Position numbers and translations under genes: made by a program. DNA of 64,000 nucleotides from an uncultured Nitrososphaeria archaeon (GTDB lineage: Archaea; Thermoproteota; Nitrososphaeria_A; Caldarchaeales; Wolframiiraptoraceae). The stretch lies in NCBI GenBank assembly GCA_964637915.1, contig CAZWXN010000001.1, forward strand, positions 4,152-68,151, read 5' to 3'. The stretch's first letter is position 1; each line of letters starts with the position of its first letter. The notes under the pieces were generated by a model. That model was not told the DNA's origin. It worked only from the letters and a program-made list of their open reading frames with translations, and did no database searches. Positions 7,598 to 59,071 of this stretch are shown here, piece by piece.

Positions 7598-8116
7598 GTG
7601 CTTGATGGTATGGAGATCCGATTACAGCCTATAGGATATGTGGAGACTGACTATGGTGATGAGGAGATTTTGGAGGCCTGGCCCCATGGTGTCGAGGGTA
7701 GAATCATAATCTATCCGAGGTTCTCTAATGGGCTCATGGGCTTGGAGGGCTTCTCCCATATAATAGCCGTTGCCTGGCTTCATAAGATCCCGGAGGAGGC
7801 TAGGATGACCCTCAAGGTCAGGTTCAGGAGGCTGGTCAGGCTGGGGCTAAACATAGAGGAGGTTCCGGAGGTTGGGGTCTTCTGCTCCGACTCGCCACAT
7901 AGGCCCAACCCGATAGCATTAACGATATTAAGGCTCAAGAGGGTTGATGGAAATGTGCTCCAAGTCTCGGGGCTCGACCTTTACAATGGGACGCCGATAC
8001 TGGATCTAAGAGCCTATACCCCATCATATTCTATAGAGGGCTATGTATTGCCGGACTGGTATACTGGATTGCTGGAGAAGCTTAGAGGAATTAGAATAAG
8101 CTGGGATAAGCTTTGA
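7598..8116 (+). CDS. TsaA/TrmO (YaeB) family SAM-dependent tRNA methyltransferase-like protein
   Basis: PIGYVETDY N-terminus, GLEGFSHIIAVAWLH, GVFCSDSPHRPNPIALT, GTPILDLRAYTP motifs of the TsaA/YaeB fold. Confidence 0.7.
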   Translation: MLDGMEIRLQPIGYVETDYGDEEILEAWPHGVEGRIIIYPRFSNGLMGLEGFSHIIAVAWLHKIPEEARMTLKVRFRRLVRLGLNIEEVPEVGVFCSDSPHRPNPIALTILRLKRVDGNVLQVSGLDLYNGTPILDLRAYTPSYSIEGYVLPDWYTGLLEKLRGIRISWDKL

Positions 8117-8247
8117 GAAGGGGGCTCTACAGCCACCACGTTCACAGGAAACACACGTTGGGTATTAAGTGGTTTTCTTCATAAAGGTGTCATAATCAGG
8201 ATGTGGGGTTTAAGGTTAATAGGAGGCACGCGTGATTCCTAAATGGC

Positions 8248-9231: not shown

Positions 9232-9301
9232 ATCTTAGCGAAAAGCTTATCCCCAATCCGTATTTTTCAGGCGATCAGAGAGGGGCTGGAGGCGGACCTA
9301 T

Positions 9302-16376: not shown

Positions 16377-16385
16377 GAATTAAAA

Positions 16386-18097
16386 CTTTTGACCACTTGT
16401 AAAGTCTCTCTGAAAAATGCTCAAAGATGTTCAATCATCCTATGCCTATCCTCAATCTCCATCATCCCGGCTAACGCGCAGGAAGAGAGGTTCGAGTGGG
16501 GTAGCCAGATGCCCATGACAGGCCCTCAGAAGACTCTGGCTCTCATGGTTGAGTTCTCTGACGTGATGTTTAGCATTTCTCGAAGGGCTGAGCAGGTCAT
16601 GAGAATGCTCGGCGACTTCATTGAGAGAAGCTCATATGGGAAGGCTTGGCTCGATTATTACATCTACCCGAAGGTGATAACTCTGCCCAAGCCCATGAGC
16701 TACTATGGGGCGCCAGAGCCCGAGAGCCAGAGAGGAGATGGCAGGGGGTCGTACGAGTACCTGCTAGCAATTATCGAGTTCGTCAAGAGAAAGTCGGGGC
16801 TTAACATAACGGAGTTTAAGCATATAGTCATAATTCATGCGGGGAGCGATGAGGCAATCAGCAACTCCCCCAACGACCTATGAAGCCTTTGCGCCTGTGG
16901 TATCAACAAGCTCCTTTACTTCTTAATAGAAAGGTATGGATTCGACGAGGTTGAGGGCTACCTGCTTGAGAATGTCTATGACCATATAGTTAACCTATTC
17001 ATGCATAGGAGGAAGGATGGGACAGGTCATCTGCTCAATGGCATACTAACAGTCGCGGAAGATGACATACCCTCTGTAATGATATATGAATTCACTCATA
17101 GCCTGTGGATCAGCGACCTATACGTATATGCCGAGGATGGCTATAGTACTGGATCCGAGGTCGGTGTCTGGTCGAACATGGATTACGGCCCCCTTCCTAG
17201 AGCCGCCAGTACACATAGATGGCTGGTCAAAGTACCTGCTCGGCTGGATTGAGACCACGGAAGTGAGGGGATGACGGGTACACGATCCATACACTGGATA
17301 AGGCGGAGGAGCCTCATGCGCTGATAATCCCGATAAACGACGAGGAGTACTACTTCATGCACGCTATGAGGCCCATGGGCCAAGATGCGGCGCTACCCGG
17401 CCCTAGAATCCTCGTCTTCAGAATCAACAAGTACCTGAGCAGGAATGTGGAGGGACACCCATTCATGTGTAAGATGTCAGATGCCCATCCCGATACGCCG
17501 CCGGAATGCTCATCAATGGACAAAGAGAGGATCAGGCTATGTGAAGGTCTTGACGCGCCCTATATAGATCCTGAAGGCTATAGAGGAACTTGGGGAAGAT
17601 TCGAGATAAATCTCATCAAAGGTGAGCTTGAGACCGAGGAGGGCTATTACATCAAAGTCCTAAATTTTGATAAGAAGAGGGGCGTCGCCAAGATACTCGT
17701 GAGCATTGGCGGAGCGGCTCCCGAGAAGACCACTATCGAAATGAAGACCACTGAGAAAGAGACGGCTGCTACTGATGCTACCCAGATATTGACAAAGATA
17801 ACCACTCAGACCATAACTATCACAAGCAAGGAAACGGTTACACGCGCTCAGATGAAGACCACAACGGTCGTGGAGACCGTCGTGAAGGAGGAGCTGGGCA
17901 TCTTAAGCTACGGGCTAATTGCCATAAGCATAGTGCTGGCTCTAGCGCTTGTAATAGTCACGAGCAGGAAAAGAGCCCACCGCCACCTCCGCCCCAGTCC
18001 ACCCCTCATAGTAGGAGACAATCATGAGGTCGAGCCGGGAGACATGTACACGGCTAACAGCCCTCCTTCTATCCTTCATTATCACCCTCTCGATTAG
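16386..18097 (+). pseudogene. Disrupted M6 (immune inhibitor A-like) surface metalloprotease gene with C-terminal TM anchor
   Basis: M6-like segments (LALMVEFSD, IVIIHAGSDE, MIYEFTHSLWISDLY, KYLLGWI, EEYYF) lie in three different reading frames. They are separated by an in-frame TGA at 16881-16883 and at least two frameshifts (about 17150-17270 and about 17265-17357). The HExxH motif is degenerate (YEFTH). A Thr-rich stalk plus TM anchor follows at the C-terminus. Confidence 0.5.
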
Positions 18098-18250
18098 CGA
18101 GAATGTTATGGCTCAGGACGACCCTCTACATCTCAAGTTCTCCGCCGACGAAACTTGATCATGAAGAGAAGAAAAGAATTCGAGAGATGCGTCCTCCCAA
18201 ATACTTATAAGAAAGTCTCTGGGCCAATCAGATGAGGTGCAGTCATAGTT

Positions 18251-18676
18251 TTGGGTATGATTCCTCGTGGTAAGCTTATTGGAATGCAGGTATACAACCC
18301 GAATGGAACATTTGTTGGAACTGTCCAGGATATTGCTCTGCCGCTTGGAGAGGGTGAGATGGGCATAGTCGTGACGACGAGAACGCAGACAATGGAGACA
18401 ATACCATGGAGCAAGATCTCTGCCGTGGGAGACATCATAATCCTCAAGGAGAACATCGAGATTAAGGCTCCGCCTGTGGAGATGGCCACGCAGCAGGCAT
18501 TCCCATCACCCCAAGCACCATCAGCGGAGAGCAAGGCTGGAGGAGCCTTGAAATCCATCACCGGAGTCTTTAAGAGGGGTGGGGAGAGGCCCGCCTGCCC
18601 AACATGCGGCAAGCCATTAGCGTACATCGAGCAGTATAAGAGATGGTACTGCTATAACTGCGGCAAATATGTCTAG
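18251..18676 (+). CDS. PRC-barrel domain protein with C-terminal zinc ribbon
   Basis: N-terminal PRC-barrel-like pattern (LIGMQVYNPNGTFVGTVQDIAL), Pro/Ala-rich linker, C-terminal CPTCG...CYNCG. Confidence 0.6.
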   Translation: MGMIPRGKLIGMQVYNPNGTFVGTVQDIALPLGEGEMGIVVTTRTQTMETIPWSKISAVGDIIILKENIEIKAPPVEMATQQAFPSPQAPSAESKAGGALKSITGVFKRGGERPACPTCGKPLAYIEQYKRWYCYNCGKYV

Positions 18677-20277: not shown

Positions 20278-20745
20278 ATGAGGGTTAAGCTTACTCTAGC
20301 TCTTAGTGATAGGCCCGGCATCCTCTTGAAGGCCTTGGAGCAGATCGCCTTGAATGGCGGTAATATTATCTCGATAATTCATCGGAGGGATAGCATTACA
20401 TCGGGCTATGTGCCCGTAAGCATTAACGTGGAGTTTCCTGATTCGGCGAGCCTTGAGAGGGCTAAAAGGGGGATAGAGGCCTCGGGGATACCGGTGATCG
20501 AGGCTGAGACTCTTGAGAAAGCCATCTGCACGATACTACTGATAGGCGCCGTGAAGATCGAGGATCTACTTAGAAAGGTTCATGAGCTCGGGTCTAGGGT
20601 TGCTGAGGTCTCCATGACCGGCGGCTTAACATCCCCCTGCATCAAGGCTGTTATCGAGGCTCCATCCGAGAAACTTGGCACACTTCTCGCATCCTTGGAG
20701 AGCTTTGCCGAGGAGCAGGGAGCGCTCCTGATAACCGAGTGGTGA
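20278..20745 (+). CDS. ACT-domain protein (standalone, upstream of homoserine dehydrogenase)
   Basis: 155 aa with two short ACT-like beta-alpha-beta-beta-alpha-beta units; stop overlaps the start of the downstream homoserine dehydrogenase. Confidence 0.55.
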   Translation: MRVKLTLALSDRPGILLKALEQIALNGGNIISIIHRRDSITSGYVPVSINVEFPDSASLERAKRGIEASGIPVIEAETLEKAICTILLIGAVKIEDLLRKVHELGSRVAEVSMTGGLTSPCIKAVIEAPSEKLGTLLASLESFAEEQGALLITEW

Positions 20746-43593: not shown

Positions 43594-43953
43594 TTACTTG
43601 AGTGGGACGTACATGCTTGATCTTGTCGCTCCCACTCCGGCTTTTCCATGCTTTACCTGCTTGCATGTTATCGCGAATTCTCCTAGCCTATGCCCTATCA
43701 TCTCGGGCTTTATCTCAACCGGGACGAATTCCTTCCCGTTGTAAACGTGTATTGTTAGGCCGACCATCTCAGGCAGGATCACCATATCCCTCGCATGCGT
43801 CTTGATGGGCTTCTTCGGCTTCTCACCCCTCTTCAGCATCTCATTCGCCTCTCTCACCTTCTCGAGAAGCCTTAGCTGGACGTGGTTTAGGCCACGCATA
43901 AGGCTCCTCCTCATCCTGCTCGGCAGTAGCTTTATGAACTGATCCATGCTCAT
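43594..43953 (-). CDS. Ribosomal protein uS19 (S19p/S15e)
   Basis: [13 protein letters not shown]...[23 protein letters not shown] signature. Confidence 0.85.
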
Positions 43954-44191
43954 CTGCCTAAGCTCATCCAGCGTGTATCCCCTGTAGGTGAATTCTCGCC
44001 TCGATATAAGGCCTCACCCCCCTCTTTATCAGCCAACATGTTAATAAAGATAATGGGGGTCTGCTGAGACACCCATGTCCATCAACCTATCTCTCAGAAC
44101 GTCTTTCTACATGCTTCGCGTATCACTTGAGCAATCCGGCCATTCACTATGACTGCGTAGCCCCCAGTCCTCCCCTCAAGCTTCCTACGGC

Positions 44192-45124
44192 CTAACCTGA
44201 AGCTTCTTTCACCCTAGTTCTTCTCGAGATTTGTGGGAGCATTTTCTCAATTGCCTTCACCACCAGCATCGCTAGTATGGTCGAGAAGAGTGTTTGGCCG
44301 AAGATATCCCTTGCATAGGATATTATGGCGACTGGGAGTCCCTTTATAAAGACGTTTACGATGAAGTATGTTGTCGCCATGTAGATGCCGCTCGCGAGGA
44401 GTATCGCCGCTTGCAGGGGCATGCTTCTACCCTTCCCGAGGCCTGCCATCATCCCCTCTCCCCCATGAGCTATTATCGTGATGAACCATCTCGGGTATCC
44501 TATCATCAGGTCCGCTATCAGTGGGCCTATCGCGCCGACGAGGCCTCCAACCCTAGACCCATAAAGGAGAGCTGCCACGAATATTGCTGTATCACCTATG
44601 TTCGTGTATCCGCCTGTGGGCGATGGGAAGAATGATCCGGTGAATGCCGTCAGCACGGCTGCCATCGCGGATAATGATGTCGCGGCCGCGAGCTCAACGC
44701 TGGTAAACCTCAGAATCGGCTCTGCGCGGCCGAACCTTAAGATGATAGCCGCCTCGACTGCCAGCATGATGATCGCCGGGACTAGGAGCACATCGCTGAG
44801 CATGGAGGACGGATAATCGAAGGCGCGCGGGAGGATCAGCAATACGATTGTCGAGACGAGTGCCAGGATGGTGATGTATCCACACCATTTAACACGCCTT
44901 TTGAGGAAGATGATGCCGGAAGGGATCACGGCTAGGATCGAGGTCGCTGAGAAGGCTAGGTAGAGCGGCACCCTGATCCTCTCCACATCAGGCAGGGAGA
45001 TCACGGACAATATGTCGGAGACGCCGAGATGCTTCAGGATTATGGAAAGCTGGATCCCTATGCTCGCCGCGATGAGAGGTGTGGACAAGGCCACTAGGAT
45101 TATTATCGTCCATGAGATCCTCAT
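44192..45124 (-). CDS. Polytopic membrane protein (likely transporter component)
   Basis: About 9 TM helices; the ORF-track start at 45370 overlaps the upstream MFS gene, so the internal Met (MRISWTII) at 45124 is preferred. Confidence 0.45.
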   Translation of the reverse strand: MRISWTIIILVALSTPLIAASIGIQLSIILKHLGVSDILSVISLPDVERIRVPLYLAFSATSILAVIPSGIIFLKRRVKWCGYITILALVSTIVLLILPRAFDYPSSMLSDVLLVPAIIMLAVEAAIILRFGRAEPILRFTSVELAAATSLSAMAAVLTAFTGSFFPSPTGGYTNIGDTAIFVAALLYGSRVGGLVGAIGPLIADLMIGYPRWFITIIAHGGEGMMAGLGKGRSMPLQAAILLASGIYMATTYFIVNVFIKGLPVAIISYARDIFGQTLFSTILAMLVVKAIEKMLPQISRRTRVKEASG

Positions 45125-45222
45125 ACCCTGGTACCTCAAGGATGCTCTGCCGATATTTATCTGAGAAGCATATAAGGCTCGTAGCCAAGAATATTTGAGC
45201 GCGCCTGTGGTGGTATGGGTAT

Positions 45223-46383
45223 TCACGTGCTTAGGATTTTTACAAGCCTGCTTGCAAGAATTACTGCTATGGCCGGGTAAATGCATAAGCTCGCGAATGC
45301 CGTGGAGAGTGGTATCGCGTTGAGTAGCAGGGCTATGATGATGGGGCCGAAGAGGTTTCCAACATCCCACGATGTCAGGTATATCGAGTTACCTAGTATC
45401 CTGAGGTTCGGCCTTACGACATGGGCTGTTATCGCCGCGGTTAATGGAAATGTGAGACCATGCGCCATCGCGACGAGGTAGAGCCCGATTATGAAGAACG
45501 ACGTACTGGGTGCCAGGCCGGCGATCAGCGCACCTATGGCGCAAGAAGCCATAGAAACCTCGAGAAACCTGACAATATTGATCCGGCCCACGTATCTCGA
45601 TAATATTGTCCGGGTTATGTATGTGATTAGGTAGTAGCCGGTGAATATTGCTAGGATGAGGTGATCCGGGATCCCAAGCTCTATGCTTGCCTTCAACGGC
45701 CCATATGCGAAAACCCCTCCAATAGTTATCGAGTAGAGGAGGTATAAGAGTGTTGGAAGGAGGAGCGGCTCCCTGAGAACATCCTTGATCATGGATGAGG
45801 TTATCTTTGAGTAGTATGATTCCTCCCAGAGCGGCGGCCTAGTCTTTGCAAATGCCGCGCCGAGGAGGACTGCGATCAAGCTGATTAACGAGGCGGAGGC
45901 CATAAGCAGCCTCAGGTCCATTAGATAGCTAAGGGCCACGCCGATTGCCGGCCCGGTCCAAAGGCCGAGAGCAACATAGGCCGTGTAATTCGCGACCGAC
46001 TTCCGAGCCTCCTCCGGCGCCATTATCAGGCTTGCGAGCGAGAGAGTTAAGGTGTAGTTCAGGGCGAATGTGACTCCCTGGAGCACTCTGAAGATCCCCA
46101 GCATCCATGGTGTCGTGCTGATCGCGTAGCCGAGCAGGGCCACGGTGTTCAGCGTTATCCCGAGGACGAGTATCCTCAGCGCATTCCTCCTGACCGCGAG
46201 CATCGACGCGGGTATCCTGCTGAGCGCAGAGGCCACCGCCGTCAAGGATACCAGTATTCCCACCTCACTCTCTGACGCCCCCAGAACCGAGTATATGTAG
46301 ACGGGCAAGATCGGGCCGATAATCTCGTATGAGAGGGTAAGTGTGAACGTTGTGTAATTGAGGAGCCTTTGATACCGTCTCAT
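45223..46383 (-). CDS. MFS transporter
   Basis: 12 TM segments, MFS-like loops. Confidence 0.65.
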   Translation of the reverse strand: MRRYQRLLNYTTFTLTLSYEIIGPILPVYIYSVLGASESEVGILVSLTAVASALSRIPASMLAVRRNALRILVLGITLNTVALLGYAISTTPWMLGIFRVLQGVTFALNYTLTLSLASLIMAPEEARKSVANYTAYVALGLWTGPAIGVALSYLMDLRLLMASASLISLIAVLLGAAFAKTRPPLWEESYYSKITSSMIKDVLREPLLLPTLLYLLYSITIGGVFAYGPLKASIELGIPDHLILAIFTGYYLITYITRTILSRYVGRINIVRFLEVSMASCAIGALIAGLAPSTSFFIIGLYLVAMAHGLTFPLTAAITAHVVRPNLRILGNSIYLTSWDVGNLFGPIIIALLLNAIPLSTAFASLCIYPAIAVILASRLVKILST

Positions 46384-46448
46384 AATAGGTCGGGAATGAT
46401 ATCCTCAATATCCCCGATAATAAATCTTGAAGAATGGAGAATTGGGCG

Positions 46449-47174
46449 CTACTTCTTCTTCCTGCCGGTTCTCCTTGCTGCGATGTAGCCAACCTTCCTC
46501 CCAGGCGGCGCATTCCTCGACACAGTCTCTGGCCTTCCAAGCTTCTTCCGAGTCCCACCGAATGGATGGTATGCGGCGGCCATCGCAACACCACGGACCC
46601 TCGGATATGTTGCAACTCTATGTTTCGCCACCATCCAGTGATGCTTCTTACCAGCCTTTAGGAAGGGCTTATCCCGTATCCCCCCGCCCGCGACAACACC
46701 TATCATCGCGAGACATTTAGAGCTTAGCTCTATAACCTTCTTCGACGGCAGCGAGACTATCGTCCTATCACCAAGCTGTGATGTAACGGTCGCGTATGTC
46801 CCGGGCGCTCGGACGAGCTTGCCGCCATCACCCGGCTTATGCTCTATCATCGAGACCTCTGTTCCCTCGGGGATTTTGGCTAGCGGGAGGATGTTGCCCG
46901 GAGCTATCGTCGCCTGTTCGCCCATCTCGATAACCTGGCCCACATACATCCCCTCAACAGCCACGACCGGGAAAGTCTCACCATTCTCCAAGGCGATTAG
47001 GGCTACTGGAGCGCCCCTACCGGGATCATGATCCAGCTCGACCACCCTGCCTAGCAGGAGCCTAGACTGCGAGATTAGCTGAGAGGGGTAGCCGACGGCA
47101 TACTTCCGCCTAAGCGATGCCCTGAAAGTCGGCGAGCCCCTACCCAGCCTCTGAGCCCTAATCCGCTTACCCAT
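46449..47174 (-). CDS. Ribosomal protein uL2
   Basis: MGKRIRAQRLGRG N-terminus, GxxxxHPxGGG-type C-terminus (HPFGGTRKK). Confidence 0.9.
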   Translation of the reverse strand: MGKRIRAQRLGRGSPTFRASLRRKYAVGYPSQLISQSRLLLGRVVELDHDPGRGAPVALIALENGETFPVVAVEGMYVGQVIEMGEQATIAPGNILPLAKIPEGTEVSMIEHKPGDGGKLVRAPGTYATVTSQLGDRTIVSLPSKKVIELSSKCLAMIGVVAGGGIRDKPFLKAGKKHHWMVAKHRVATYPRVRGVAMAAAYHPFGGTRKKLGRPETVSRNAPPGRKVGYIAARRTGRKKK

Positions 47175-47318
47175 CCCACACCCACCGGGATCTTATCCAG
47201 TCCACCAGCCCAGACCTCAATCTATTAAGTATTTTCGCATAAGGTAAGTTTTCCGCTATTAAACCTCCTTCGGCAAGTTTTCAGCATTAAGATCAAAGTT
47301 CTAGTTTACTCAGCATTT

Positions 47319-47894
47319 TCATCTCGAGTATATTCCTGTTAAGGTGGCTTCTGCAAGGATATGGTCTTTCATGAGCTTTAAGAGTTCGTCTTTTGAGGCC
47401 GCTGGACCTAGTTCGAGCATCGTGTCCAGCGCATATATCCTGAAGACGTATCTATGTGGTTTTCCCGGCGGTGGGCATGGGCCTCCATAGCCCGGTCTTC
47501 CGAAATCGTTTAAGCCCTGCACTATTCCTCCGGGAAGCTCTTCAGCAGGCTCCATTCCCTCATCGAGCCGATTCACATCCGCGGGTATATTATAGATTAT
47601 CCAGTGTGTGAATATTCCTCCGGGGGCATCCGGGTCCTCGACTATTATGGCGAGGCTCTTGGTTTCGGGTGGCTGACCTCTCCAGCGAAGGGGTGGAGAG
47701 ATGTCAAGGCCGTCACACGTATATTTTTCCGGAATTATTCCATTATCCTTGAAGGCAGGGCTCTCTAAGATAAAGCCTGTGATCAAAGTGGTGGCGGATC
47801 TCTCCGGGGCACTCGGGTAGATGATATAGGCGGCAATTACTCCGGCTAGCGCGATGATGAGCACGATCATTAACGCTATCCAGCGCCTCGCCAT
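47319..47894 (-). CDS. PEBP family protein (YbhB/YbcL-type), membrane-anchored
   Basis: DPDAPGGIFTHWIIYNIP and GYGGPCPPPGKPHRYVFRIYALD signatures; N-terminal TM helix. Confidence 0.8.
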   Translation of the reverse strand: MARRWIALMIVLIIALAGVIAAYIIYPSAPERSATTLITGFILESPAFKDNGIIPEKYTCDGLDISPPLRWRGQPPETKSLAIIVEDPDAPGGIFTHWIIYNIPADVNRLDEGMEPAEELPGGIVQGLNDFGRPGYGGPCPPPGKPHRYVFRIYALDTMLELGPAASKDELLKLMKDHILAEATLTGIYSR

Positions 47895-47941
47895 CCATAG
47901 ATCATTATGCTCGAGGCTGTTATAATTTTTGCCCGCCGGGT

Positions 47942-48202
47942 TTAGAGGATTCCAAGCTCGACTGCGAGGTCCGCTGCCTTGTATTCTGGCTTTAGCTTGA
48001 CGTATGCCTTCTTCTCGCCTCTTGGCGTTATCATCGTATTCACCTTCTCCACCTTCACACCATAGAGCTCCTCAACCGCCCTCTTTACATCGGCCTTGGT
48101 CGCTCTCAAGTCGACTATGAAGGTGAGCTTATTCTCCTTCTCGATTAGCGAGACCGCGTCCTGCGTGATCACAATCCTCTTGATTACTTCGGAGGCCCTC
48201 AT
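47942..48202 (-). CDS. Ribosomal protein uL23
   Basis: 86 aa, [31 protein letters not shown] pattern. Confidence 0.85.
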
Positions 48203-49035
48203 GCTAAACCACCCAGTATCTTTTCATCCAGCTTTTCTAGGGCGGATCTTGTCCAGATCGTAAGCCTGCCTGGCTTGGCGCCGGGCGCGAGGTGGAGGAC
48301 GCTTAGATCCTTCAGCTTCACGACCTTGACACCGGGGATGTTCTCTGCGGCCTCCTCGATCCCGCGATCCTCGAGTATAACTATCAGCGGCCCAACCCTC
48401 CGCTTATATCTCCGGCCCCTCCGCTTGCCCTTGCCAGCCCTAACCTTCTTCTCACTACATCTCTCGAGCTCCTCGCCAAGCCCTATCTTCTCCAAGAATT
48501 CTCGAACCTCCCTAGTCTTGGCGATAGACTGGAGCGCGTCATCAACGACTATTGGGAGTGGAAGGTCTTCCGGGATCCTATGCCCTCTATCCTTAACCGC
48601 CTCCCTATCTGCCGTGAATGCTATCGCCACGGCGAGCGCCGCCCTCTTCTCCTTCTCATTGAGATCCTTGTGGATCTTCTTTTCCGGCACCGGTGGGTGT
48701 CCCGGTCTACCGCCTACGGCCGAGTTAATCATCCCGCCAGCCATCGCCTTGCCAGTGCCATGAGCTCTTATCCGGGATACTCTGGCTACGCCATAGCCCG
48801 CTCCAAGCGACTCAACAGAGTACTTGTGTCCCGAGCCCTTGAACGTGCCCTTAGGCTGTAGGACATGGGTCTGGAGATGTATGAAGGCCCTCCAGACTAG
48901 GTCCTCCCTAAGCGGGGCCAAGAAGGTCTTGGGAAGCGTGATCTCGCCTACCTTGTTACCAGCTAGATCTAGGACGGGCACTCTCCTCTCGCCCGCCCTA
49001 GAAGCATTCATCAGCAGCTCAACCAGTAGGCTCAT
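48199..49035 (-). CDS. Ribosomal protein uL4 (L4/L1e)
   Basis: 278 aa; L4 fold pattern, 4-nt overlap with uL23. Confidence 0.85.
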
Positions 49036-49879
49036 TCTAGGCTTCTAGCTCATAAGAGCCCATATTTAAGGCATGACTCTCACATATCAATATATCATCA
49101 AAAAATCACATGCATTAGAAGCTGTCCAACTCTGGTAAGGGAAATCCTAAATTGGGGACTAGGGAAAAAGGGTCTCACTATCATCCTTTTTCTTTCTTCC
49201 TTCATCTCTTCTCCCATTGGGGGTCTCTGGAATCATATGTCTCCATCTTGCCCTTAGCCATGTATATTCTTCTCCTCTCCTTTAGAGTAGAGTCTATCCC
49301 GCCAGCCTTTCTGAGAGAAATTCTCCTACACGCTTCTATCCTCTCCACCCCCAATACCCTTATCCATACCGTAATTGATCTCGTATCGCTCCTCATCCTA
49401 GCTCATGCCGCCGAAGACCTTATCCTCCTCGATAAACTTCTTCTTGAACCTCTTCCATTAACCTTGATTCTGAATGCTGAAGCTAGCATCCCTATGATGA
49501 ACTAGAAGTCCCTATTTTTGGAATGATCCTCAACGAATGAAGGATGGCCCATGTCGGGGATGTGGTTGTCTGGGGTTCTAGCTAGGTGTCTGTCCTCGAG
49601 AATCTTGACGGGATAGATGATTTCGCCAAGACATTTGGAAGATGTGTTGGGAAATCAGCGATAAGGGCGTTATACAGTGAGCCCAAGGATCTGATGAGGT
49701 GATTGATAAATTCTTCCTGCAACACGTTATCTTGACGCTTGGGTAGAGGCGTGCCCTCCGACTATTATACTAAACTAAGAAGAATGCAAACGCAATGATA
49801 AGCTATGCTCTAGCGATCATTAAGTGGTTTGAAGATTCCTGGAGCTCGCTCCAGGAAGGGAGCAACGTATAGCTAGGGT

Positions 49880-50860
49880 TTAGTCTGGTATCCCCGCATA
49901 TATTAGCTGTGGCGGCTCGATTGGTGGCGGAGGCCTTGCCGGTATCCGGAGGACTATCGGCCTCTTCGGTGTCCCCGGGACAGTTCCTTCGAGAAGTATA
50001 CATGTTGTTCTTATGATTCCAAAGTGCGGGAACCCGCCCTTCGGAGTAAGCTTTGAGCCATCCTCCTCGATCGCGAGTATCCTCTTGTTGTATTCTGTTC
50101 TTCTGTGGTAGCCGAGCTGGCCCGGCCTCGGCACCGTGTATGGGACGTATTCGGGTGTTCTGCCGCCGATTGCTCCGACGACGCGCCTGCCCTTCCTCTT
50201 CTTCCTCGGCAGTATCTTGACGCCCCATCGCTTCACCACGCCCTCAAAGCCCTTGCCCTTCGTCACAGCGATGACGTCGATGAAGCCCCCAGGCTTGAAG
50301 ACCTCGCTTATCCTGATCTCCTGCCCAAGTTTTGAAACAGCATAGTCGATCGCCTTCTCTATGGCCCCGCCGACCTTTATCTCGATTATATCCGGCTTCT
50401 TCTTCGAGAGGCCGGCCTGCTTCGGAAAAGTCATACTAATTATCCTAACCTCTGTAATATCGTCTCGCAGAGCCTCCAGCCTCTTCAAATTCTCCTCATT
50501 CGGCCTCCAGTTCGGGATCTTCCTCCTAATCAGGTCCATGGGAACCTTGCTGCTCCAGACCTTCAAGAGCTCTTTGAGAGATTTGTTCTCCTCGGTGTAT
50601 GCAACTATGCCGGCCGCGAGCATCGGCGGAGTGACTATCACAGTGGCGACCTCCGCGACCTCCTGGCCTTGGGTCGGGGAGTTCGGCGTAGTATCTATGT
50701 AGTATGCTGTGAGGTGACCCGCCTTATAGCCCAAGAAGCCCAAGGGCTTCGGCTCGCCCTCATATGGAGGCCAATACCTTACCCTAGGGACGAGGCGACT
50801 GGCCCTGCCTCTAGGCAGGAATGCGAGCGAGCCTGATCTCGGCTTCGAGTCCTTGACCAT
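49880..50860 (-). CDS. Ribosomal protein uL3
   Basis: 326 aa; N-terminal KPRSGSLAFLPR and internal L3 motifs. Confidence 0.85.
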   Translation of the reverse strand: MVKDSKPRSGSLAFLPRGRASRLVPRVRYWPPYEGEPKPLGFLGYKAGHLTAYYIDTTPNSPTQGQEVAEVATVIVTPPMLAAGIVAYTEENKSLKELLKVWSSKVPMDLIRRKIPNWRPNEENLKRLEALRDDITEVRIISMTFPKQAGLSKKKPDIIEIKVGGAIEKAIDYAVSKLGQEIRISEVFKPGGFIDVIAVTKGKGFEGVVKRWGVKILPRKKRKGRRVVGAIGGRTPEYVPYTVPRPGQLGYHRRTEYNKRILAIEEDGSKLTPKGGFPHFGIIRTTCILLEGTVPGTPKRPIVLRIPARPPPPIEPPQLIYAGIPD

Positions 50861-53448: not shown

Positions 53449-54624
53449 ATGGCGGCTATCCGAGAGCTCTCCATGATGGCTAAGTATCCATTTCTCCCCG
53501 AGGCCCGGGGGGAGCTTGCGAAATACGGGATAACTCTTGAGAGCTTTAGCGACCCGGCCTACCAGAAGGTCGTTGAGAGGGCGAAGGGGAGGATAATTGA
53601 CGCGATAGAATATGGTGATGACGTCAGCCCCTCGAGCATCTCCGATGATGATTTTGTGGAGCTCGCGTCATTCCCGCTCTCAATCGCCATGATAGCCGCG
53701 ATCGGTGATAAGAGGCTTGCGAGGAGGTTCGCGCTCGCGACATCCTCCCTCACGATCAAGCTCCTTGAATCCGAGGATCCCGAGTGGAGGGATTATACAG
53801 TTCTCAGGATCGCGCGAGATGTCTTCGGCATGGATGTTAGGAGGGAGGACAGGGTTGTCGGCGGCATCACATATGACTACTCCCTAGGACTCAAGGATTA
53901 TCTAAGAGGAGCATTGGCGTTCAATAGGCCCGAATGGAAGCTCGTGAACCGCGTCGTTGAGCGCGGAAGGGTCTTGGTAACAGCCCATGAGCTCATTAGG
54001 CTTCTAAAGGATCGTGTGATGGAGCATATCCTATCTCTCGTGGAGAGGGCTGGCAAGATCGGCGCTCTCCCCGGCCCGGTCGAGGAGGCGATTAGGGAGA
54101 TTAGGGGGAGGATGCCGGCCGCGATACAGCTCGAGCTCACTACCGTTAAGAGCGGGCCCGAGACATGGCCGCCATGCATGAGGGCGATAGCGGACAAGCT
54201 CATGGCCGGCGAGAATATCAGCCACTTCGCGAACTTCGCCTTCGCCGCATTCCTCTCGAACATAGGATTCGAGCCACATGAGATAATCAGGTTCTACGCG
54301 AATAGGCCGGACTTCAACGAGAGGATCGCGAGGTATCAGGTCGAGCACATCGCCGGCCTCAGGGGCAGCAGGACAAAATACATGACACCAAGCTGCAATA
54401 CTATGAAGACTAACGGCTTATGCGTGAAGGATGGCGCATTATGCGGCGATATCAGGAACCCGCTAATTTATTATAGGAGGGCGATTAAGAGGATTAGGAA
54501 GATTGATAAGGATAAGGCTGAGGTGGGAGGAGAACGCGGAAAGGCTGGCGGCGAAGCTATCAGAGATTCTGGCCCCGACGGGGATACTCCCAGTGATCAA
54601 CAGATCTCAGGTAATCCTGGATGA
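53449..54624 (+). CDS. priL: DNA primase large subunit PriL
   Basis: 391 aa; C-terminal Fe-S cluster cysteines (PPCMRAI ... CNTMKTNGLCVKDGALCGD) and archaeal PriL helical N-domain. Confidence 0.75.
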   Translation: MAAIRELSMMAKYPFLPEARGELAKYGITLESFSDPAYQKVVERAKGRIIDAIEYGDDVSPSSISDDDFVELASFPLSIAMIAAIGDKRLARRFALATSSLTIKLLESEDPEWRDYTVLRIARDVFGMDVRREDRVVGGITYDYSLGLKDYLRGALAFNRPEWKLVNRVVERGRVLVTAHELIRLLKDRVMEHILSLVERAGKIGALPGPVEEAIREIRGRMPAAIQLELTTVKSGPETWPPCMRAIADKLMAGENISHFANFAFAAFLSNIGFEPHEIIRFYANRPDFNERIARYQVEHIAGLRGSRTKYMTPSCNTMKTNGLCVKDGALCGDIRNPLIYYRRAIKRIRKIDKDKAEVGGERGKAGGEAIRDSGPDGDTPSDQQISGNPG

Positions 54625-54658
54625 TGATCTCGCTGATAGATCGCTGAGAATCGAGGAG

Positions 54659-54871
54659 ATGGTCGAGCTCACGGCGAAGACACTATCAGAGCTCGAGATA
54701 AGATTCCGCGGAATCACTGCCTCAGATAGAGAGATCATGATTGAGGATGAGAAGCCGGAGAGGAGGGGAAGCCGCGGGCCGGGCTTCTTCATCTGCCCCC
54801 ACTGCGGCTTCATAACACCATACGAGGAGGAGTACTGGAATCACTTGAAGATTCACTATATCGGCTTCTAG
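54659..54871 (+). CDS. Possible small C2H2-type zinc-finger protein (70 aa)
   Basis: C-terminal FICPHCGF...HLKIH; I prefer the internal Met at 54659 because the 54503 start overlaps PriL. Confidence 0.3.
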   Translation: MVELTAKTLSELEIRFRGITASDREIMIEDEKPERRGSRGPGFFICPHCGFITPYEEEYWNHLKIHYIGF

Positions 54872-55368
54872 GGCCGCTTATACCCCGCGATGAGCCTCTT
54901 CCAGTAATCCCAGTCCACAAGCCCATAAACCCCCTTAACCACGTTCTCGTCAATCGCGTCGGCAGCCGCCTCACCGAGCTTATCAATGGCGATGTTCGCA
55001 ATTATCCTGAATGGGAGGCCGGCAGTCTTCGCTGCATGAATAGCCACCGATGTGCAGGATTTGACAAGATCCCAGCTCACTGCGCCAGCCTCCCTCCTAA
55101 CCATCTCCACCAGGCCCCCGAGATCGGCGAAATAATTCCTCAAGTCCTTCTCCATATCGGGCACGCTTACAAGAGTATTCCTAGCCAGGCTTAGAATCCT
55201 ATGAGCCGAGGCCTCTACACGCGCTATCCTCCAAGTTATCGAGATGATCCTCGAGGGAGAGATTTCATCCTCAAGCTTCTTAATTCGCTCCTCGAGCTCC
55301 CGGAGCTTTCCCGAGATCTCCTCTCTAAGCCTCCTGACCTCCTCGAGAAGTCCCTCCTCGGATGCCAA
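54868..55368 (-). CDS. Hypothetical protein with N-terminal coiled coil, downstream of the suf genes
   Basis: 166 aa; a heptad-like Glu/Arg/Leu-rich N-terminus (EEVRRLREEISGKLRELEERIKKLEDE). Confidence 0.4.
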   Translation of the reverse strand: MASEEGLLEEVRRLREEISGKLRELEERIKKLEDEISPSRIISITWRIARVEASAHRILSLARNTLVSVPDMEKDLRNYFADLGGLVEMVRREAGAVSWDLVKSCTSVAIHAAKTAGLPFRIIANIAIDKLGEAAADAIDENVVKGVYGLVDWDYWKRLIAGYKRP

Positions 55369-55372
55369 GCTC

Positions 55373-56578
55373 CTAGAATCCTTTGACTGCGAGATCTATA
55401 ATCTTTTTGATTGATTCCTCGAGGAAGCTTGGGAGGTTGAGGGGGGATATGTCTAGGAAGCCCCTGACTATCAGGGACTCAGCATCCTCCCTCGAGAAGC
55501 CCCTCGACATGAGGTAAATCAGTTGATCCTCGGAGATCCTGCCTATCGCCGCCTCATGGGTCAGCGACGCGTTCATTCTTCTCGAGATCAGCTCCGGTAT
55601 AGTGTATATCTCCGCCTCGTCAGAGAGCATTAAGCCTCTGCAGCTTATGTGGCCGCGGCCATCATCCGCCTCACATTCTATCCTTCCACGCATGGTGAGC
55701 TTGGCCCTATCCAAGGCGACTGCGCTCGTGATCAGCTCAGCCCTCGCACCCCTCCCTGTTATCAAGCAATCGCCACCCATATCCATCCTCGAGGAACCGT
55801 CGAGATAGATGATATTACTCAGGGATATCGCCGCGCCCCCTCCCTCAAGCCTCGCAGACGGCTTTGATTGGAAGCTACCAACAGAGCCGAGGAGGACATA
55901 GTTGTAGGATACCGTCGCGCCCTCCTCGAGCACTATGCCAGTCCTTGGCCTTACGTGGAAGCTCGGCCCCCATCTATGAATCATCGTATAATTCAGCTTC
56001 GCGCCCTGCTTGACGAATATCTCTGTTACCCCAATATGGAGCCCCCTCTGATCATGCCTCCTCATCGTGCAGCCCGTGATTATACATGCCTCGGAGCCCG
56101 GCTCAGCAACTATGAGGTTGTGAACACTCTGGATTATCCCGGGCGAGTAGGAGAAGAAGCATGCCTGAATCGGCATGTGAAGCCTCCTACCCTCAAGTAT
56201 CCTGAGGAAGAACCCGCTCGGCGGCCTCAAGGCATTATACGCGGTATACTTGTCAGCATATGGGCTTACAAGGCTCCAGAAGTGCTCCCGAGCCCATGGA
56301 TATCTCTCAAAGGCCTCCTGTATTGGCATGAGCTCTATATCTCCTTGGAACTGCTTCTGGATAGCCCTATACGCGATCTCATGATCGATCTGGAGGAATG
56401 TTGTGAGAGATGATGCTCTCCCCAGATCCACCCCAACCTCGAGGCTCCTCCTCCTAACATCCTCATCAACCTCGATCCTCCCCCTAGGCTCCTGCTCGAA
56501 CTCCTCGAGATCCAGGTCCTCGCCATATTCAGCCGGCTTGCTAAGAGCCTCTCTCAGCCGCCTCTCATCAACCTGCAT
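55373..56578 (-). CDS. Fe-S cluster assembly protein SufB/SufD family
   Basis: 401 aa; C-terminal beta-helix region typical of SufBD; 25-nt overlap with sufC. Confidence 0.8.
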   Translation of the reverse strand: MQVDERRLREALSKPAEYGEDLDLEEFEQEPRGRIEVDEDVRRRSLEVGVDLGRASSLTTFLQIDHEIAYRAIQKQFQGDIELMPIQEAFERYPWAREHFWSLVSPYADKYTAYNALRPPSGFFLRILEGRRLHMPIQACFFSYSPGIIQSVHNLIVAEPGSEACIITGCTMRRHDQRGLHIGVTEIFVKQGAKLNYTMIHRWGPSFHVRPRTGIVLEEGATVSYNYVLLGSVGSFQSKPSARLEGGGAAISLSNIIYLDGSSRMDMGGDCLITGRGARAELITSAVALDRAKLTMRGRIECEADDGRGHISCRGLMLSDEAEIYTIPELISRRMNASLTHEAAIGRISEDQLIYLMSRGFSREDAESLIVRGFLDISPLNLPSFLEESIKKIIDLAVKGF

Positions 56579-57279
56579 CTATCACACCACCTATATCCAT
56601 CCATCATTATTCTGTTAAGTATCTGATCTGGATCCCCCTCGCATGCTATCACGCCGTCTATGAGGACATGCGCCTTCACGGGCTTCAGATGCCTGAGAAT
56701 ATAGCCATGATGCGTTATTATCAGGGCGGATCTACCCCTTAAGCTCTCCGAGAGGAATCTCCCAATCAACTCGAGATTCTCCACATCAACGCCCGAGTCC
56801 GGCTCATCAAGTATTATTAGCCTCGGGTTTGATGCTAGCGCCTGCGCAAGCTCGCATCTCTTAATCTCCCCGCCCGAGAAGCCTACGTTCACATATCGGT
56901 TCAAGTGCTCCTGTGATATGTTAAGCCTATCAACTATCTCGAGGAATCTCTCGCCGATGCCATTCTCGGATGCTATTCTCGCGAGGAGGTCCTTCAGCTT
57001 TATCCCATGGAGCTTTGGCGGGTTCTGAAACGCTATGCTTATCCCCATTCTAGCCCTCTCATCTATCGGTTTCTCCGTTATGTCTTGGCCGTCGAATATT
57101 ATCCTCCCGCCGACTATCCTGTAATCCGGGTGCCCGATTATGGCCATTGCGAGCGTCGACTTCCCGGAGCCATTCGGCCCGAAGATCGCGTGAATCTCGC
57201 CATCACCGACCTCGAGGCTCACGCCCTTAAGTATCAGCCTATTCCTCACAGCGACGTGAAGATTCTCTATCCTGAGCAA
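56554..57279 (-). CDS. sufC: Fe-S cluster assembly ATPase SufC
   Basis: Walker A GPNGSGKST, signature FSGGEIKR, Walker B ILDEPDSGVD. Confidence 0.85.
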   Translation of the reverse strand: MLRIENLHVAVRNRLILKGVSLEVGDGEIHAIFGPNGSGKSTLAMAIIGHPDYRIVGGRIIFDGQDITEKPIDERARMGISIAFQNPPKLHGIKLKDLLARIASENGIGERFLEIVDRLNISQEHLNRYVNVGFSGGEIKRCELAQALASNPRLIILDEPDSGVDVENLELIGRFLSESLRGRSALIITHHGYILRHLKPVKAHVLIDGVIACEGDPDQILNRIMMDGYRWCDRCRLMRGG

Positions 57280-57302
57280 AGCACATCACCCCTGAACTAC
57301 TT

Positions 57303-57668
57303 TTACGTGATCTTGAAGAGGAGCCAGCCCCTCCCGATGTTTATCATCGCATATCTTCCTTTTAACCTTGAGCCCATACAGTGGAAGATTATCTTCTTGC
57401 CCTCCTCGTATTCCACGAGCTTAAACTCACCCTTATCCCATATCTTGACCACGCCGGCGCCATAACCCTCCTTGATCACACCCTCGAAGTCAGCATACCA
57501 TAGCTCATGATCCGGCTGTGGTATCCCAAGCCTCCTGACACCACGCGTCATCGGGAGCTCCTTCCTGAATGCCCATGACTTGAGAACTCCCCCGATCTCC
57601 AGCCTAAGATCATAATGTAAGCCGGCCCTGTGAGCATGATGCTCATGTACAACGAATCTGGGACACAA
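57303..57668 (-). CDS. Standalone LigD-type 3'-phosphoesterase (PE) domain protein
   Basis: FVVHEHHAHRAGLHYDLRLE, VLKSWAF, YADFEGVIKEGYGAGVVKIWDKG match the LigD PE domain signature; 121 aa. Confidence 0.7.
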   Translation of the reverse strand: MCPRFVVHEHHAHRAGLHYDLRLEIGGVLKSWAFRKELPMTRGVRRLGIPQPDHELWYADFEGVIKEGYGAGVVKIWDKGEFKLVEYEEGKKIIFHCMGSRLKGRYAMINIGRGWLLFKIT

Positions 57669-57694
57669 GGGCTACCAAAATAATGAGATAGTGA

Positions 57695-59065
57695 ATGATA
57701 AAGCTGTTAAGGGTGTCGGGGGATAGCTTAATACTCGGCGAGCGAGCCTCAGATCCTTGGATGAGCCTTAGGGATTTTCTCGGGGTCTTGGATGATGAGG
57801 GGCTTCTCGTCCATGTTAGGAGGCCCGTCTCAACGAGATATGAGGCTGCCGCGATAATGAAGAGGCTCGATCCGAGGCCTGTATTATTTCATGAGGTGCG
57901 TGAGGCCCCGGGCTTCAAGCTTCTCGGAAACCTCTGCGCCGATAGGAGGATCCTAGCAAGGGCTCTAGGAATCTCGGAGCGAGATCTGCTAAGGAGAATT
58001 GTCGAGGCGATGGAGAATCCCGGAAAGGGTGAGATCGTAGAGGATCCGCCATGCCAGGAGGTCGTGATAGATAATCCGGATCTTAGGAGGCTTCCCTTCC
58101 TCATTTTCGGGGAGAGGGATGGCGGCCCATACATGACTGCCGGGATAGTGATCGCCCGGGATCCAGAGCTGGGGCATAATGCGAGCTATCATAGGCTCAT
58201 GCTCTTGGATGAGAGGAGGGTTGCGGCGAGGATCCTGCCAAGACACCTCGACGAGTTCATCAGGAGGGGTGTTAGGAGGATCGCTATAGCCGTGGGTAAT
58301 CATCCAGCATTCATGCTGGCGGCAGCTGTTACTTGGAGGCTGGGCGTCAGCGAGCTCGATATAGCCGCCGCGCTCGCCCCGATAAGATATGCCAGGGCCA
58401 TGACGAGCGATATCCTCGTCCCGGCCGACTGCGAGCTCGTCCTGGAGGGGACGATAACGGATGAGAGGGCTGATGAGGGGCCGTTCATCGACATAACAGG
58501 GACATATGATATCATGAGGAAGGAGAGGGTTATCGAGATCGAGTGTATCACCATGCGGAGGGGCCCGATATTCCAGCAGATACTCCCGGCTGGCAGCGAG
58601 CATAGGAACTTGATGGGGATGCCGAGGGAGGCGGCGATATACGCTGAGGCATCAAAGGTCTGCGATGTCGTTGATGTGAGGCTTACGCCGGGCGGCTGCA
58701 ACTGGCTCCACTGCGCGATAAGCATTAGGAAGAGGAGCGATGATGATCCAAGAAGGGTTATTGAGGCCGCGCTGAGAGCCCATCAAAGCCTCAAGCACGT
58801 TATAGTTGTTGATGATGATATAGATCTCTCGAATCCATATGACTTGGAGTGGGCGATAGCGACGAGGGTTCAGCTGGATAGGGATCTTGTGCTTAGGCCG
58901 AATGAGCTTGGATCATCCCTCGACCCGTCAGCCGATCAGGTTACTAGGAGGACTTGTAAGGCTGGCTTGGATGCGACGATCCCGCTCACAGCTGATAGAA
59001 GCAAGTTCATTAGGGCCAAGATACCGGGAGAAGATGAGGTTAGGATAGAGGATTACGTGAAGTGA
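57695..59065 (+). CDS. UbiD-family decarboxylase (candidate trans-anhydromevalonate-5-phosphate decarboxylase)
   Basis: 456 aa UbiD fold; immediately upstream of AcnX-type large and small subunit genes. Confidence 0.8.
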   Translation: MIKLLRVSGDSLILGERASDPWMSLRDFLGVLDDEGLLVHVRRPVSTRYEAAAIMKRLDPRPVLFHEVREAPGFKLLGNLCADRRILARALGISERDLLRRIVEAMENPGKGEIVEDPPCQEVVIDNPDLRRLPFLIFGERDGGPYMTAGIVIARDPELGHNASYHRLMLLDERRVAARILPRHLDEFIRRGVRRIAIAVGNHPAFMLAAAVTWRLGVSELDIAAALAPIRYARAMTSDILVPADCELVLEGTITDERADEGPFIDITGTYDIMRKERVIEIECITMRRGPIFQQILPAGSEHRNLMGMPREAAIYAEASKVCDVVDVRLTPGGCNWLHCAISIRKRSDDDPRRVIEAALRAHQSLKHVIVVDDDIDLSNPYDLEWAIATRVQLDRDLVLRPNELGSSLDPSADQVTRRTCKAGLDATIPLTADRSKFIRAKIPGEDEVRIEDYVK

Positions 59066-59071
59066 GCCTGG

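Follow-up and report, generated by a model that had tools for sequence, protein, structure and literature searches.

Archaeal genomes contain small genes that resemble the 3′-phosphoesterase (PE) domain found in the NHEJ ligase LigD of bacteria, and the gene described here raises the question of what such a domain may do when it is encoded by itself, beside suf genes and away from any recognisable end-joining partner. The gene was studied within the whole stretch of DNA available for analysis, which is 64 kb in length and is referred to below as the window. It very probably encodes a minimised stand-alone archaeal 3′-phosphoesterase of the class represented by CkoPE of Ca. Korarchaeum cryptofilum, which has no ligase or polymerase fused to it and most probably acts independently of Ku.

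Gene call and family assignment

The PE gene is an open reading frame of the minus strand that codes for 121 aa, with a TTG start codon and a TAA stop codon (57305-57303). The TTG is the earliest start available after the upstream in-frame stop, and the homologues of the protein start at an equivalent position. The following in-frame start is M40, use of which would delete the active site. The same 121-aa product has been called by public gene callers on four independent metagenome contigs; ENA contigs ERZ27245635:k141_136080 and ERZ27245638:k141_143294 carry the identical protein.

57303..57668, minus strand: coding sequence of the stand-alone minimal LigD-type 3′-phosphoesterase (open reading frame list, PF13298, match to 3p4h, AlphaFold2 model)

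The protein matches the Pfam family LigD_N (PF13298) with 101 bits (cutoff 31.1, E=5e-29) over profile positions 1-106 of 107, a match which by its score is far beyond chance. LigD_N is the single Pfam domain of the protein and the frame is bounded by stop codons, with no ligase or primase-polymerase domain fused to it of the kind found in multidomain LigD. With the NCBIfam model TIGR02777 (LigD_PE_dom) the score is 104 bits, under the curated cutoff of 144, because this model (matched at positions 29-152 of 156) includes an N-terminal peptide which is absent from the window PE. The best solved relative is CkoPE (3p4h, E=1e-35), followed by 3p43, 5dmp and 3n9b. The window PE and CkoPE are 57% identical across 119 aligned columns, which is near end to end (residues 2-119). 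An AlphaFold2 model, generated with a 16-sequence alignment, has a mean pLDDT of 96.7 and, apart from a single short helix (residues 56-60), is all-beta. When this predicted structure was compared with solved structures using Foldseek, it matched 3p4h with TM 0.93/0.96 and an rmsd of 1.0 Å, and the matches with E<1e-3 were PE structures only.

Judged by profile, alignment and predicted fold, the window gene is a real, full-length LigD-type 3′-phosphoesterase and an ordinary member of a known family. This bears out the preliminary description of the locus, which had recognised a LigD-type PE from two motifs, VHEHHAHRAGLHYDLRLE and WYADFEGVIKEGYGAG, both of which are present, and had described it as encoded alone, as is the case for this 121-aa single-domain frame bounded by stops.

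Predicted active site

In CkoPE, crystallography and alanine mutagenesis have assigned His9, His15 and Asp17 to metal binding and Arg19 and His51 to the phosphate, which Tyr55 contacts via water (PMC3082917). The alignment pairs H10, H18 and D20 of the window PE with the first three of these residues and R22, H54 and Y58 with the latter three, so that the predicted six-residue active site is complete. The relevant codons, together with an insertion that lies among them, are as follows.

57603..57641, minus strand: codons 10-22 (HHAHRAGLHYDLR), with the predicted metal ligands H10, H18 and D20 and the predicted phosphate-binding R22 (CkoPE alignment)
57621..57626, minus strand: codons 15-16, a two-residue Ala-Gly insertion in the β1-β2 loop between the predicted His metal ligands (gap against CkoPE, MbaPE and PaePE)
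57495..57515, minus strand: codons 52-58 (PDHELWY), with Pro52, the predicted phosphate-binding H54, and Y58, predicted to contact the phosphate via water (alignments)

Conservation of these residues was assessed in 122 sequences, made up of the 120 best matches (of 854 protein matches), the query and CkoPE. H10, H18, D20, R22 and H54 are invariant in 122/122, and position 58 is Tyr in 90 sequences, Trp in 30, and Met and Phe in one each. The preliminary description had staked its assignment on a His/Asp/Arg/Tyr constellation, and this is intact in the window PE, where the five invariant residues are joined by Tyr at position 58.

The Ala-Gly insertion sits in a modelled loop between strands 4-12 and 16-25. 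It is present in 68 of the 122 aligned sequences, and 67 of these 68 are minimal PEs. Pro52 occupies the position of PaePE Glu82 and CkoPE Glu49, at which Glu (63 sequences) and Pro (41 sequences) are found among the 122; Pro replaces the glutamate in 38 of the 68 sequences with the insertion, compared to 3 of the 54 without it. The CkoPE group has no insertion and keeps the glutamate. From this pattern of insertion and Pro, the window PE can therefore be placed in a large Ala-Gly subclade. As seen in the alignment, its differences from the CkoPE group are minor variation inside a known kind, and the insertion, lying between the metal-binding histidines, could alter metal or substrate preference.

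The window PE also lacks the N-terminal peptide, including the equivalents of Pae Arg14, Asp15 and Glu21, and thus does not have the feature set of the phosphomonoesterase type. The N-peptide and Glu82 are required for 3′-phosphatase activity and are dispensable for diesterase activity and ribonucleoside removal (PMC8656161, PMC4797286); in PaePE, deletion of the N-peptide selectively reduces the monoesterase. Bartlett et al. noted that several N-terminally truncated PEs are also without this glutamate (PMC4797286). Because the N-peptide is missing and Pro stands at the Glu82 position, a weak 3′-phosphomonoesterase is predicted, and the window PE is probably a 3′-ribonucleoside-resecting diesterase with weak 3′-phosphatase.

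Comparison with characterised phosphoesterases

Mn2+-dependent 3′-ribonucleoside resection and/or 3′-phosphate removal has been shown for CkoPE, MbaPE, MpaPE and bacterial PEs (PMC3082917, PMC3258152, PMC4797286). The closest likeness is to CkoPE (117 aa; PDB 3P4H, 3TA5, 3TA7), which, as with the window PE, has neither an N- nor a C-peptide and is encoded by itself, away from repair genes. The two share the same six active-site residues, 57% identity from end to end and, for the predicted fold, a deviation of 1.0 Å (TM 0.93-0.96). They differ in that CkoPE is without the Ala-Gly insertion and has Glu49, whereas the window PE has the insertion and Pro52, and in their source, CkoPE being from Korarchaeota and the window PE from a Nitrososphaerota lineage. 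According to Das et al. (2012), CkoPE works with Mn, Co, Cu and Cd and fails with Mg, Ni and Zn (PMC3258152). It has a 4-fold preference for single-strand substrates and its monoesterase is feeble, with approximately 90% R1p product (PMC3258152).

MbaPE of Methanosarcina barkeri (151 aa, PDB 3P43; E=1e-29 to the window PE) has the same fold and catalytic residues and is likewise stand-alone. However, it retains the N-terminal peptide that is lacking here, and it has both diesterase and monoesterase activities (PMC3258152). MpaPE of Methanocella paludicola (198 aa, PDB 5DMP), described by Bartlett et al., also shares the fold and the six catalytic residues, but it possesses an N-extension and an active-site loop, is operonic with an NHEJ polymerase and ligase, and has a Ku partner (PMC4797286), none of which was seen for the window PE. 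In the bacterial LigD PE, residues His42/His48/Asp50/Arg52/His84/Tyr88 correspond to H10/H18/D20/R22/H54/Y58 of the window PE (E=2e-19, TM 0.86-0.90). The bacterial PE differs in being a domain of a three-domain polypeptide acting with Ku, in having N- and C-peptides and Glu82, and in preferring primer-template substrates (PMC3258152).

Smith et al. (2011) found stand-alone PEs across many proteomes and characterised a 117-aa archaeal PE (PMC3082917). Among these they set apart 'minimised' archaeal PEs, namely those of A. profundus (121 aa), Ca. K. cryptofilum (117 aa) and M. boonei (128 aa), a subgroup of single-domain proteins of ~117-128 aa with the barrel and active site and without N- and C-peptide (PMC3082917). 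The window PE has the features of this subgroup, being a single-domain protein of 121 aa with no N-peptide and with no NHEJ genes in its 64 kb window.

Occurrence of stand-alone phosphoesterases

The best 120 of the 854 protein matches to the window PE are all 91-156 aa in length with LigD_N as their sole Pfam domain. Their named sources are almost all archaeal, including Nitrososphaerota, Korarchaeum, Infirmifilum, Bathyarchaeia and Woesearchaeota. The nearest named relatives are from a "Thaumarchaeota archaeon" MAG (75%) and an uncultured Nitrososphaeria archaeon (73%), and the PE of Ca. Terraquivivens, a genus of the Nitrososphaerota family Ca. Wolframiiraptoraceae, is 63-64% identical. The window most likely derives from a thermophilic member of the Nitrososphaerota of the "Aigarchaeota" type.

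Species-representative genomes yielded at least 597 confirmed PE loci, and the best 80 of these were combined with five non-redundant metagenome/MAG loci into a sample of 85. In this sample 71 PE genes are stand-alone (ORFs of 210 aa or less) and 14 are long. Ku, Lig or PolDom was found near none of the 71 stand-alone genes, whose flanking sequence totals 14 kb at the median and, at 35 loci, reaches 5 kb or more in each direction. By contrast, 13 of the 14 long ORFs are LigD-like fusions or adjoin Ku and Pol. An example of the latter is found in Bathyarchaeia, with the cluster Pol-Ku-[Lig-PE, 466 aa]-DUF72. The split between stand-alone and long or fused loci is clean in the 85-locus sample. 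This also agrees with the survey of Smith et al., in which the PE-bearing archaea were without Ku and their PE genes were not clustered with repair genes (PMC3082917).

The preliminary description had regarded freestanding PE proteins as rare. This is not borne out, given that the best 120 of 854 matches are single-domain, that 71 of 85 loci are stand-alone and that the class has been in print since 2011. Its suggestion of a 3′-end healing activity used outside a LigD context agrees with the published conclusion for the class, but it is not new, and the 3′-phosphatase part of such healing is probably weak here.

Genomic context

The window is, according to a Pfam scan, an ordinary archaeal chromosomal segment. 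It carries genes for an Opp-type ABC transporter, ProRS, TIM, pyruvate kinase, aspartate-pathway enzymes, ABCE1, NrpR, glutamate dehydrogenase, ribosomal proteins L3, L4, L2 and S19, PriL, SufC, a SufB/D-like protein, a UbiD-family decarboxylase, both AcnX subunits and a Cys/Met PLP enzyme. An Rfam scan of the window returned a tRNA-Ala gene as its sole match, with no RNA element at or near the PE gene. The features surrounding the PE gene, and the tRNA gene, are listed below.

54868-55368, minus strand: ORF of 166 aa, no family match, 4-nt gap from the sufB/D-like gene
55373-56578, minus strand: sufB/D-like gene, overlapping sufC by 25 nt
56554-57279, minus strand: sufC, downstream of PE (TIGR01978, 218 bits, above cutoff)
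57286..57292, minus strand: SD-like GGGGTGA, 6 nt before the TTG start of sufC, in the 23-nt spacer that separates the PE stop from sufC (sequence)
57695..57702, minus strand: tentative TATA-like TTTATCAT, 27-34 nt before the PE start, overlapping the first UbiD codons (sequence)
57695-59065, divergent from PE: UbiD-family decarboxylase (Pfam scan)
59072-60259, divergent from PE: AcnX large subunit (Pfam scan)
60256-60663, divergent from PE: AcnX small subunit (Pfam scan)
34662-34734 (Rfam) or 34662-34735 (ARAGORN): tRNA-Ala

The neighbours agree with the preliminary description, which had placed the gene next to the suf genes and the mevalonate cluster. SufC and the sufB/D-like gene lie downstream, and UbiD and the AcnX subunits are divergent. 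Its statement that the window holds no Ku, ligase or PolDom gene also stands, as the Pfam scan of approximately 60 ORFs of at least 110 aa over the 64 kb identified no Ku, ATP-dependent DNA ligase or LigD PolDom, and tblastn of the window with Ku, Lig and Pol queries from other loci gave a best E-value of 0.37. The gene is thus set among sufC, sufB/D, UbiD and AcnX, and not in an operon of the archaeo-prokaryotic NHEJ type.

The PE gene, sufC, the sufB/D-like gene and the 166-aa ORF probably share one transcription unit. Inspection of the sequence revealed no SD-like motif ahead of the PE start. The SD-like GGGGTGA in the spacer suggests that sufC would be an internal gene of a transcript starting upstream of PE. 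Plausibly, a PE-sufC-sufB-orf166 transcript begins with the PE gene, which would then be near-leaderless.

The order PE-sufC-sufB is kept, with gaps of 1-51 bp, in the 88% relative (L005-L008) and the 75% relative (L009). Both of these have a CLC channel gene between UbiD and PE, which is absent from the window. In the 73% relative (L015) sufC lies 2.7 kb from PE, and in the 68% relative (L011) the suf genes are replaced by genes for 2-oxoacid:ferredoxin oxidoreductase (POR), with UbiD/AcnX and PriL-HD-AsnS still flanking. The context of PE is unrelated in the 67% (L013) and 63% (L016) relatives. Clustering of the flanking ORFs of the 85 loci placed SufBD near PE in four, all of them closely related, and it revealed no broadly conserved neighbour family, the largest cluster being generic ABC ATPases (13 of 85). 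As the adjacency is limited to one clade, it is therefore lineage-local synteny, and a functional link between PE and suf was rejected on the basis of the six relatives' contexts and the flank clustering. On this comparison of gene orders, the adjacency is a local arrangement in one thermophilic Nitrososphaerota lineage. The reading is in agreement with the published lack of clustering of archaeal PE genes with repair genes (PMC3082917). A link to PriL or to the HD nucleotidase was also considered and rejected, both genes being within 3-9 kb of PE in the same clade only, with PriL on the opposite strand; it survives solely in the speculative suggestion on primase given below.

Sequence evolution of the PE gene

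The PE gene is under purifying selection. Its dN/dS is 0.07-0.11 against L009 and L015, and in the comparison with the more closely related L005 codons differ synonymously in 48 cases and non-synonymously in 14. The dN/dS run gave a dS of 26 for PE against L005; the flanking DNA is ~93% identical to that of L005, with dS of ~0.17 for sufC and UbiD. Codon-by-codon and sliding-window comparisons showed that a real divergent tract is present.

~57372..57790: tract anomalously divergent from L005, with sliding identity of 65-80% or unalignable inside and 88-98% outside

This tract takes in PE codons 1 to ~99 (being sharpest over 1-76), a divergent intergenic region and approximately the first 30 codons of UbiD. 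Nucleotide identity to L005 is 73% over PE codons 5-76 and 89-90% over codons 77-121, and codons 5-76 are as divergent from L005 as they are from L009 and L015 (PE protein identity 73-75%). The whole catalytic part of PE lies inside the tract, across which the amino-acid sequence is conserved. The tract coincides with the presence (L005) or absence (window) of the CLC gene. It probably arose by recombination or allele replacement, with one of its ends falling inside PE.

Proposed function and alternative explanations

By homology, the chemistry and metal use of the window PE would be those of the characterised enzymes. In the predicted eight-stranded β-barrel, His10, His18 and Asp20 on the outer face would bind a soft divalent metal (Mn2+ or Co2+), and Arg22, His54 and, via water, Tyr58 would hold the scissile phosphate. 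By analogy, the metal together with R22 and H54 would stabilise the transition state of hydrolysis of the 3′-terminal phosphodiester, and a DNA strand that ends with at least two ribonucleotides would lose the terminal ribonucleoside and be left with a 3′-phosphate. Single-stranded 3′ ends would probably be preferred. A second, monoesterase step could yield a 3′-OH, and this is expected to be weak in the window PE. The leading guess as to cellular role is that the enzyme trims 3′ ends which are blocked or carry ribonucleotide tails, as part of Ku-independent repair.

Two other repair settings come into consideration. In both M. paludicola and bacteria PE is a genuine part of the NHEJ machinery (PMC4797286), and Pol-Ku-[Lig-PE] clusters do occur in some archaea, for example the Bathyarchaeia loci L030, L055, L070 and L076, so that the window PE could be the nuclease of a Ku-dependent archaeo-prokaryotic NHEJ system of the M. 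paludicola type with its partners encoded elsewhere, the search for Ku, Lig and Pol having covered 64 kb of the source genome. This is nevertheless very unlikely, since PEs of the NHEJ type are fused or operonic with such partners (13 of 14 long ORFs, against 0 of 71 stand-alone genes), Ku is absent from the PE-bearing archaea in the survey of Smith et al. (PMC3082917), a 2025 paper reports Ku/LigD in very few archaea (PMC12019639), and the window PE is minimal and without an N-peptide, unlike the 198-aa MpaPE. The enzyme might instead mainly clean blocked 3′ ends (3′-phosphate or similar) left by bifunctional glycosylase/AP-lyases or strand breaks, in BER/SSB repair. Removal of 3′-phosphate is within the abilities of PE enzymes, and in L019, L020, L022, L078 and L086 a stand-alone PE is immediately preceded, in the same orientation, by an HhH-GPD glycosylase gene, the two being 3-5 bp apart or overlapping (in L046 the gap is 419 bp). 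However, these glycosylase-paired PEs are 147-161 aa, long enough for an N-peptide, whereas the window PE has neither the N-peptide nor, with Pro in its place, the Glu82 equivalent, two features that are tied to phosphatase activity; the monoesterase of CkoPE is already feeble (PMC3258152), and neither the window nor the close relatives have a glycosylase gene next to PE. A primary role in BER/SSB repair is thus regarded as unlikely.

Coupling of PE to Fe-S cluster assembly, or action on a phosphoester other than nucleic acid, is suggested by its place as first gene of a PE-sufC-sufB unit: PE and sufC are on the same strand, separated by the 23-nt spacer with its SD-like GGGGTGA, and the 88% and 75% relatives likewise have the genes side by side, 1-51 bp apart. 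Such a role appears highly improbable, as the adjacency belongs to a single clade (2.7 kb of separation in L015, POR genes in L011, unrelated contexts in L013 and L016, SufBD at 4 of 85 loci) and nucleic-acid end processing has been demonstrated for CkoPE (PMC3082917, PMC3258152). The TTG start, the lack of an SD sequence and the TIGR02777 score of 104 against 144 might further raise the suspicion of a chance frame, a pseudogene or a relic that has lost catalysis. This has next to no likelihood and is refuted by the family match (Pfam E=5e-29), the intact predicted catalytic residues and the purifying selection, with synonymous changes far in excess of non-synonymous ones; furthermore, the identical protein is found on four independent metagenome contigs, and the TIGR02777 shortfall is explained by the missing N-peptide.

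The reading of the window PE as a minimised stand-alone enzyme of the CkoPE class is retained. Candidate roles for the class are the trimming of ribonucleotide-tailed 3′ ends in Ku-independent end joining, such as PriSL-promoted MMEJ (PMC12019639), and the clean-up of blocked 3′ ends in excision repair, and neither is backed by anything specific to this window. Co-transcription with sufCB, as suggested by the SD-like sequence and the 23-nt spacer, would allow for another physiological connection. A search of the literature after 2013 on the in vivo role of stand-alone archaeal PEs found nothing relevant.

A more specific suggestion concerns the Ala-Gly/Pro52 subclade, which belongs to thermophilic TACK archaea. 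Primase (PriSL)-promoted, Ku-independent microhomology end joining has been described in Saccharolobus (PMC12019639), and the subclade may conceivably represent a phosphatase-less 3′-ribonucleoside diesterase that trims ribonucleotide tails added by PriSL in Ku-independent MMEJ. This is speculative and seems decidedly doubtful; if true, it would be the first physiological role for the stand-alone PE class. In this lineage priL stays within 3-9 kb of PE.

Significance

The window PE adds one orthologue from an uncultured lineage to a family whose structure, chemistry and stand-alone archaeal occurrence have been in the literature since 2010-2012. Taken by itself it is of little consequence, and the locus does not make the role of stand-alone PEs in cells lacking Ku and LigD more testable. 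A modestly useful by-product of the analysis is the split in NHEJ neighbours, which are found at 0 of 71 stand-alone loci and at 13 of 14 with long or fused PEs. For the PE class more generally there are two leads, these being the HhH-GPD glycosylase-PE gene pairs found in other lineages, and the Ala-Gly subclade, whose members are often without the glutamate linked to phosphatase activity.

Divergence around the phosphoesterase gene

Comparison with the corresponding locus of the closest related lineage (L005, compared region 8059-10300) revealed, on the basis of DNA identity, a divergent tract at window positions 57372-57790. Outside this tract the flanks are approximately 93% identical to L005, while identity falls to 65-80%, or alignment fails, across the 5′ two-thirds of the stand-alone 3′-phosphoesterase (PE) gene, the intergenic region and UbiD up to about codon 30. 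The loci of this lineage (L005 to L008) carry a CLC chloride-channel gene at the position of the tract, which is absent there in the window. Judged from the sequences, the tract looks like the result of recombination or allele replacement, with one end within PE near codons 77-99.

Genes adjoining PE

On either side of PE, and after priL, lie the following:

54503-54871, plus strand: small ORF overlapping the 3′ end of priL
54868-55368, minus strand: 166-aa ORF with a coiled-coil-like N-terminus, 4 nt past the sufB/D-like gene
55373-57279, minus strand: sufC and SufB/D-like genes
57695-60663, plus strand: UbiD-family decarboxylase, AcnX large and AcnX small subunits

The suf genes are two only. 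The sufC product passes TIGR01978, and the top NCBIfam model for the SufB/D-like protein is SmsB ("SUF-like minimal system") with 215 bits, under the cutoff of 650; the pair resembles a minimal SUF-type system of two genes. The 166-aa ORF downstream has no family match and, when the flanking ORFs of the 85 PE loci were clustered, was present only in the window's own lineage contig (L001), L005 and a more distant relative (L009).

The UbiD and AcnX genes had been termed a mevalonate cluster in the preliminary description, and their membership of these families was confirmed. They presumably serve the archaeal-type mevalonate pathway, as phosphomevalonate dehydratase and anhydromevalonate-phosphate decarboxylase. 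The nearest named NCBIfam AcnX model is cis-3-hydroxy-L-proline dehydratase, with a score under its cutoff.

The small ORF after priL (84-120 aa as called in relatives), which matches no Pfam or NCBIfam family, carries a C2H2-like motif (CPHCGF...YWNHLKIH) at its C-terminus. In L005, L009 and a further relative (L011), priL is likewise followed by an ORF of about this size.

Gene order elsewhere in the window

In the ribosomal-protein cluster (L3, L4, L23, L2, S19; 43594-50860), non-ribosomal genes are interposed:

44192-45370: ORF with an ECF-S-like domain, between L2 and S19
45223-46383: MFS transporter, between L2 and S19
47319-47894: PEBP-family protein, between L23 and L2

In the relative L006, L23 is followed by L2 without the PEBP gene. 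Four ORFs of 140-246 aa (16260-18627 and 20278-20745), located among genes for aspartate-semialdehyde dehydrogenase, aspartokinase and homoserine dehydrogenase, have no Pfam match.

Neighbours of PE in other lineages

Bathyarchaeia and some other archaeal MAGs possess a compact NHEJ-type cluster, PolDom-Ku-Lig-PE-DUF72 (L030, 7319-11117; also L055, L070 and L076), in which Lig-PE is a two-domain fusion of 466 aa. Several Bathyarchaeia loci with stand-alone PE also have a gene nearby for a small Ssb-like OB-fold protein, with 2-oxoacid:ferredoxin oxidoreductase genes upstream.

Ssb-like OB-fold genes, all on the strand opposite to PE and downstream of it
L040, 10750-11040: ~0.1-0.4 kb
L050, 10760-11065: ~0.1-0.4 kb
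L057, 10449-10739: ~0.1-0.4 kb
L079, 7432-7737: ~3.3 kb

Six loci have an HhH-GPD (EndoIII-like) glycosylase gene immediately 5′ of a stand-alone PE of 147-161 aa; their sources are Methanoperedens, an uncultured archaeon, Omnitrophota and Dehalococcoidia.

Glycosylase-PE pairs, both genes on the same strand
L019, 3963-5045: gap 3-5 bp
L020, 9280-10360: gap 3-5 bp
L022, 2465-3566: gap 3-5 bp
L078, 9280-10363: gap 3-5 bp
L086, 9336-10417: genes overlap
L046, 1475-3041: gap 419 bp

These pairs point to a possible link with base-excision repair for part of the stand-alone PE class.
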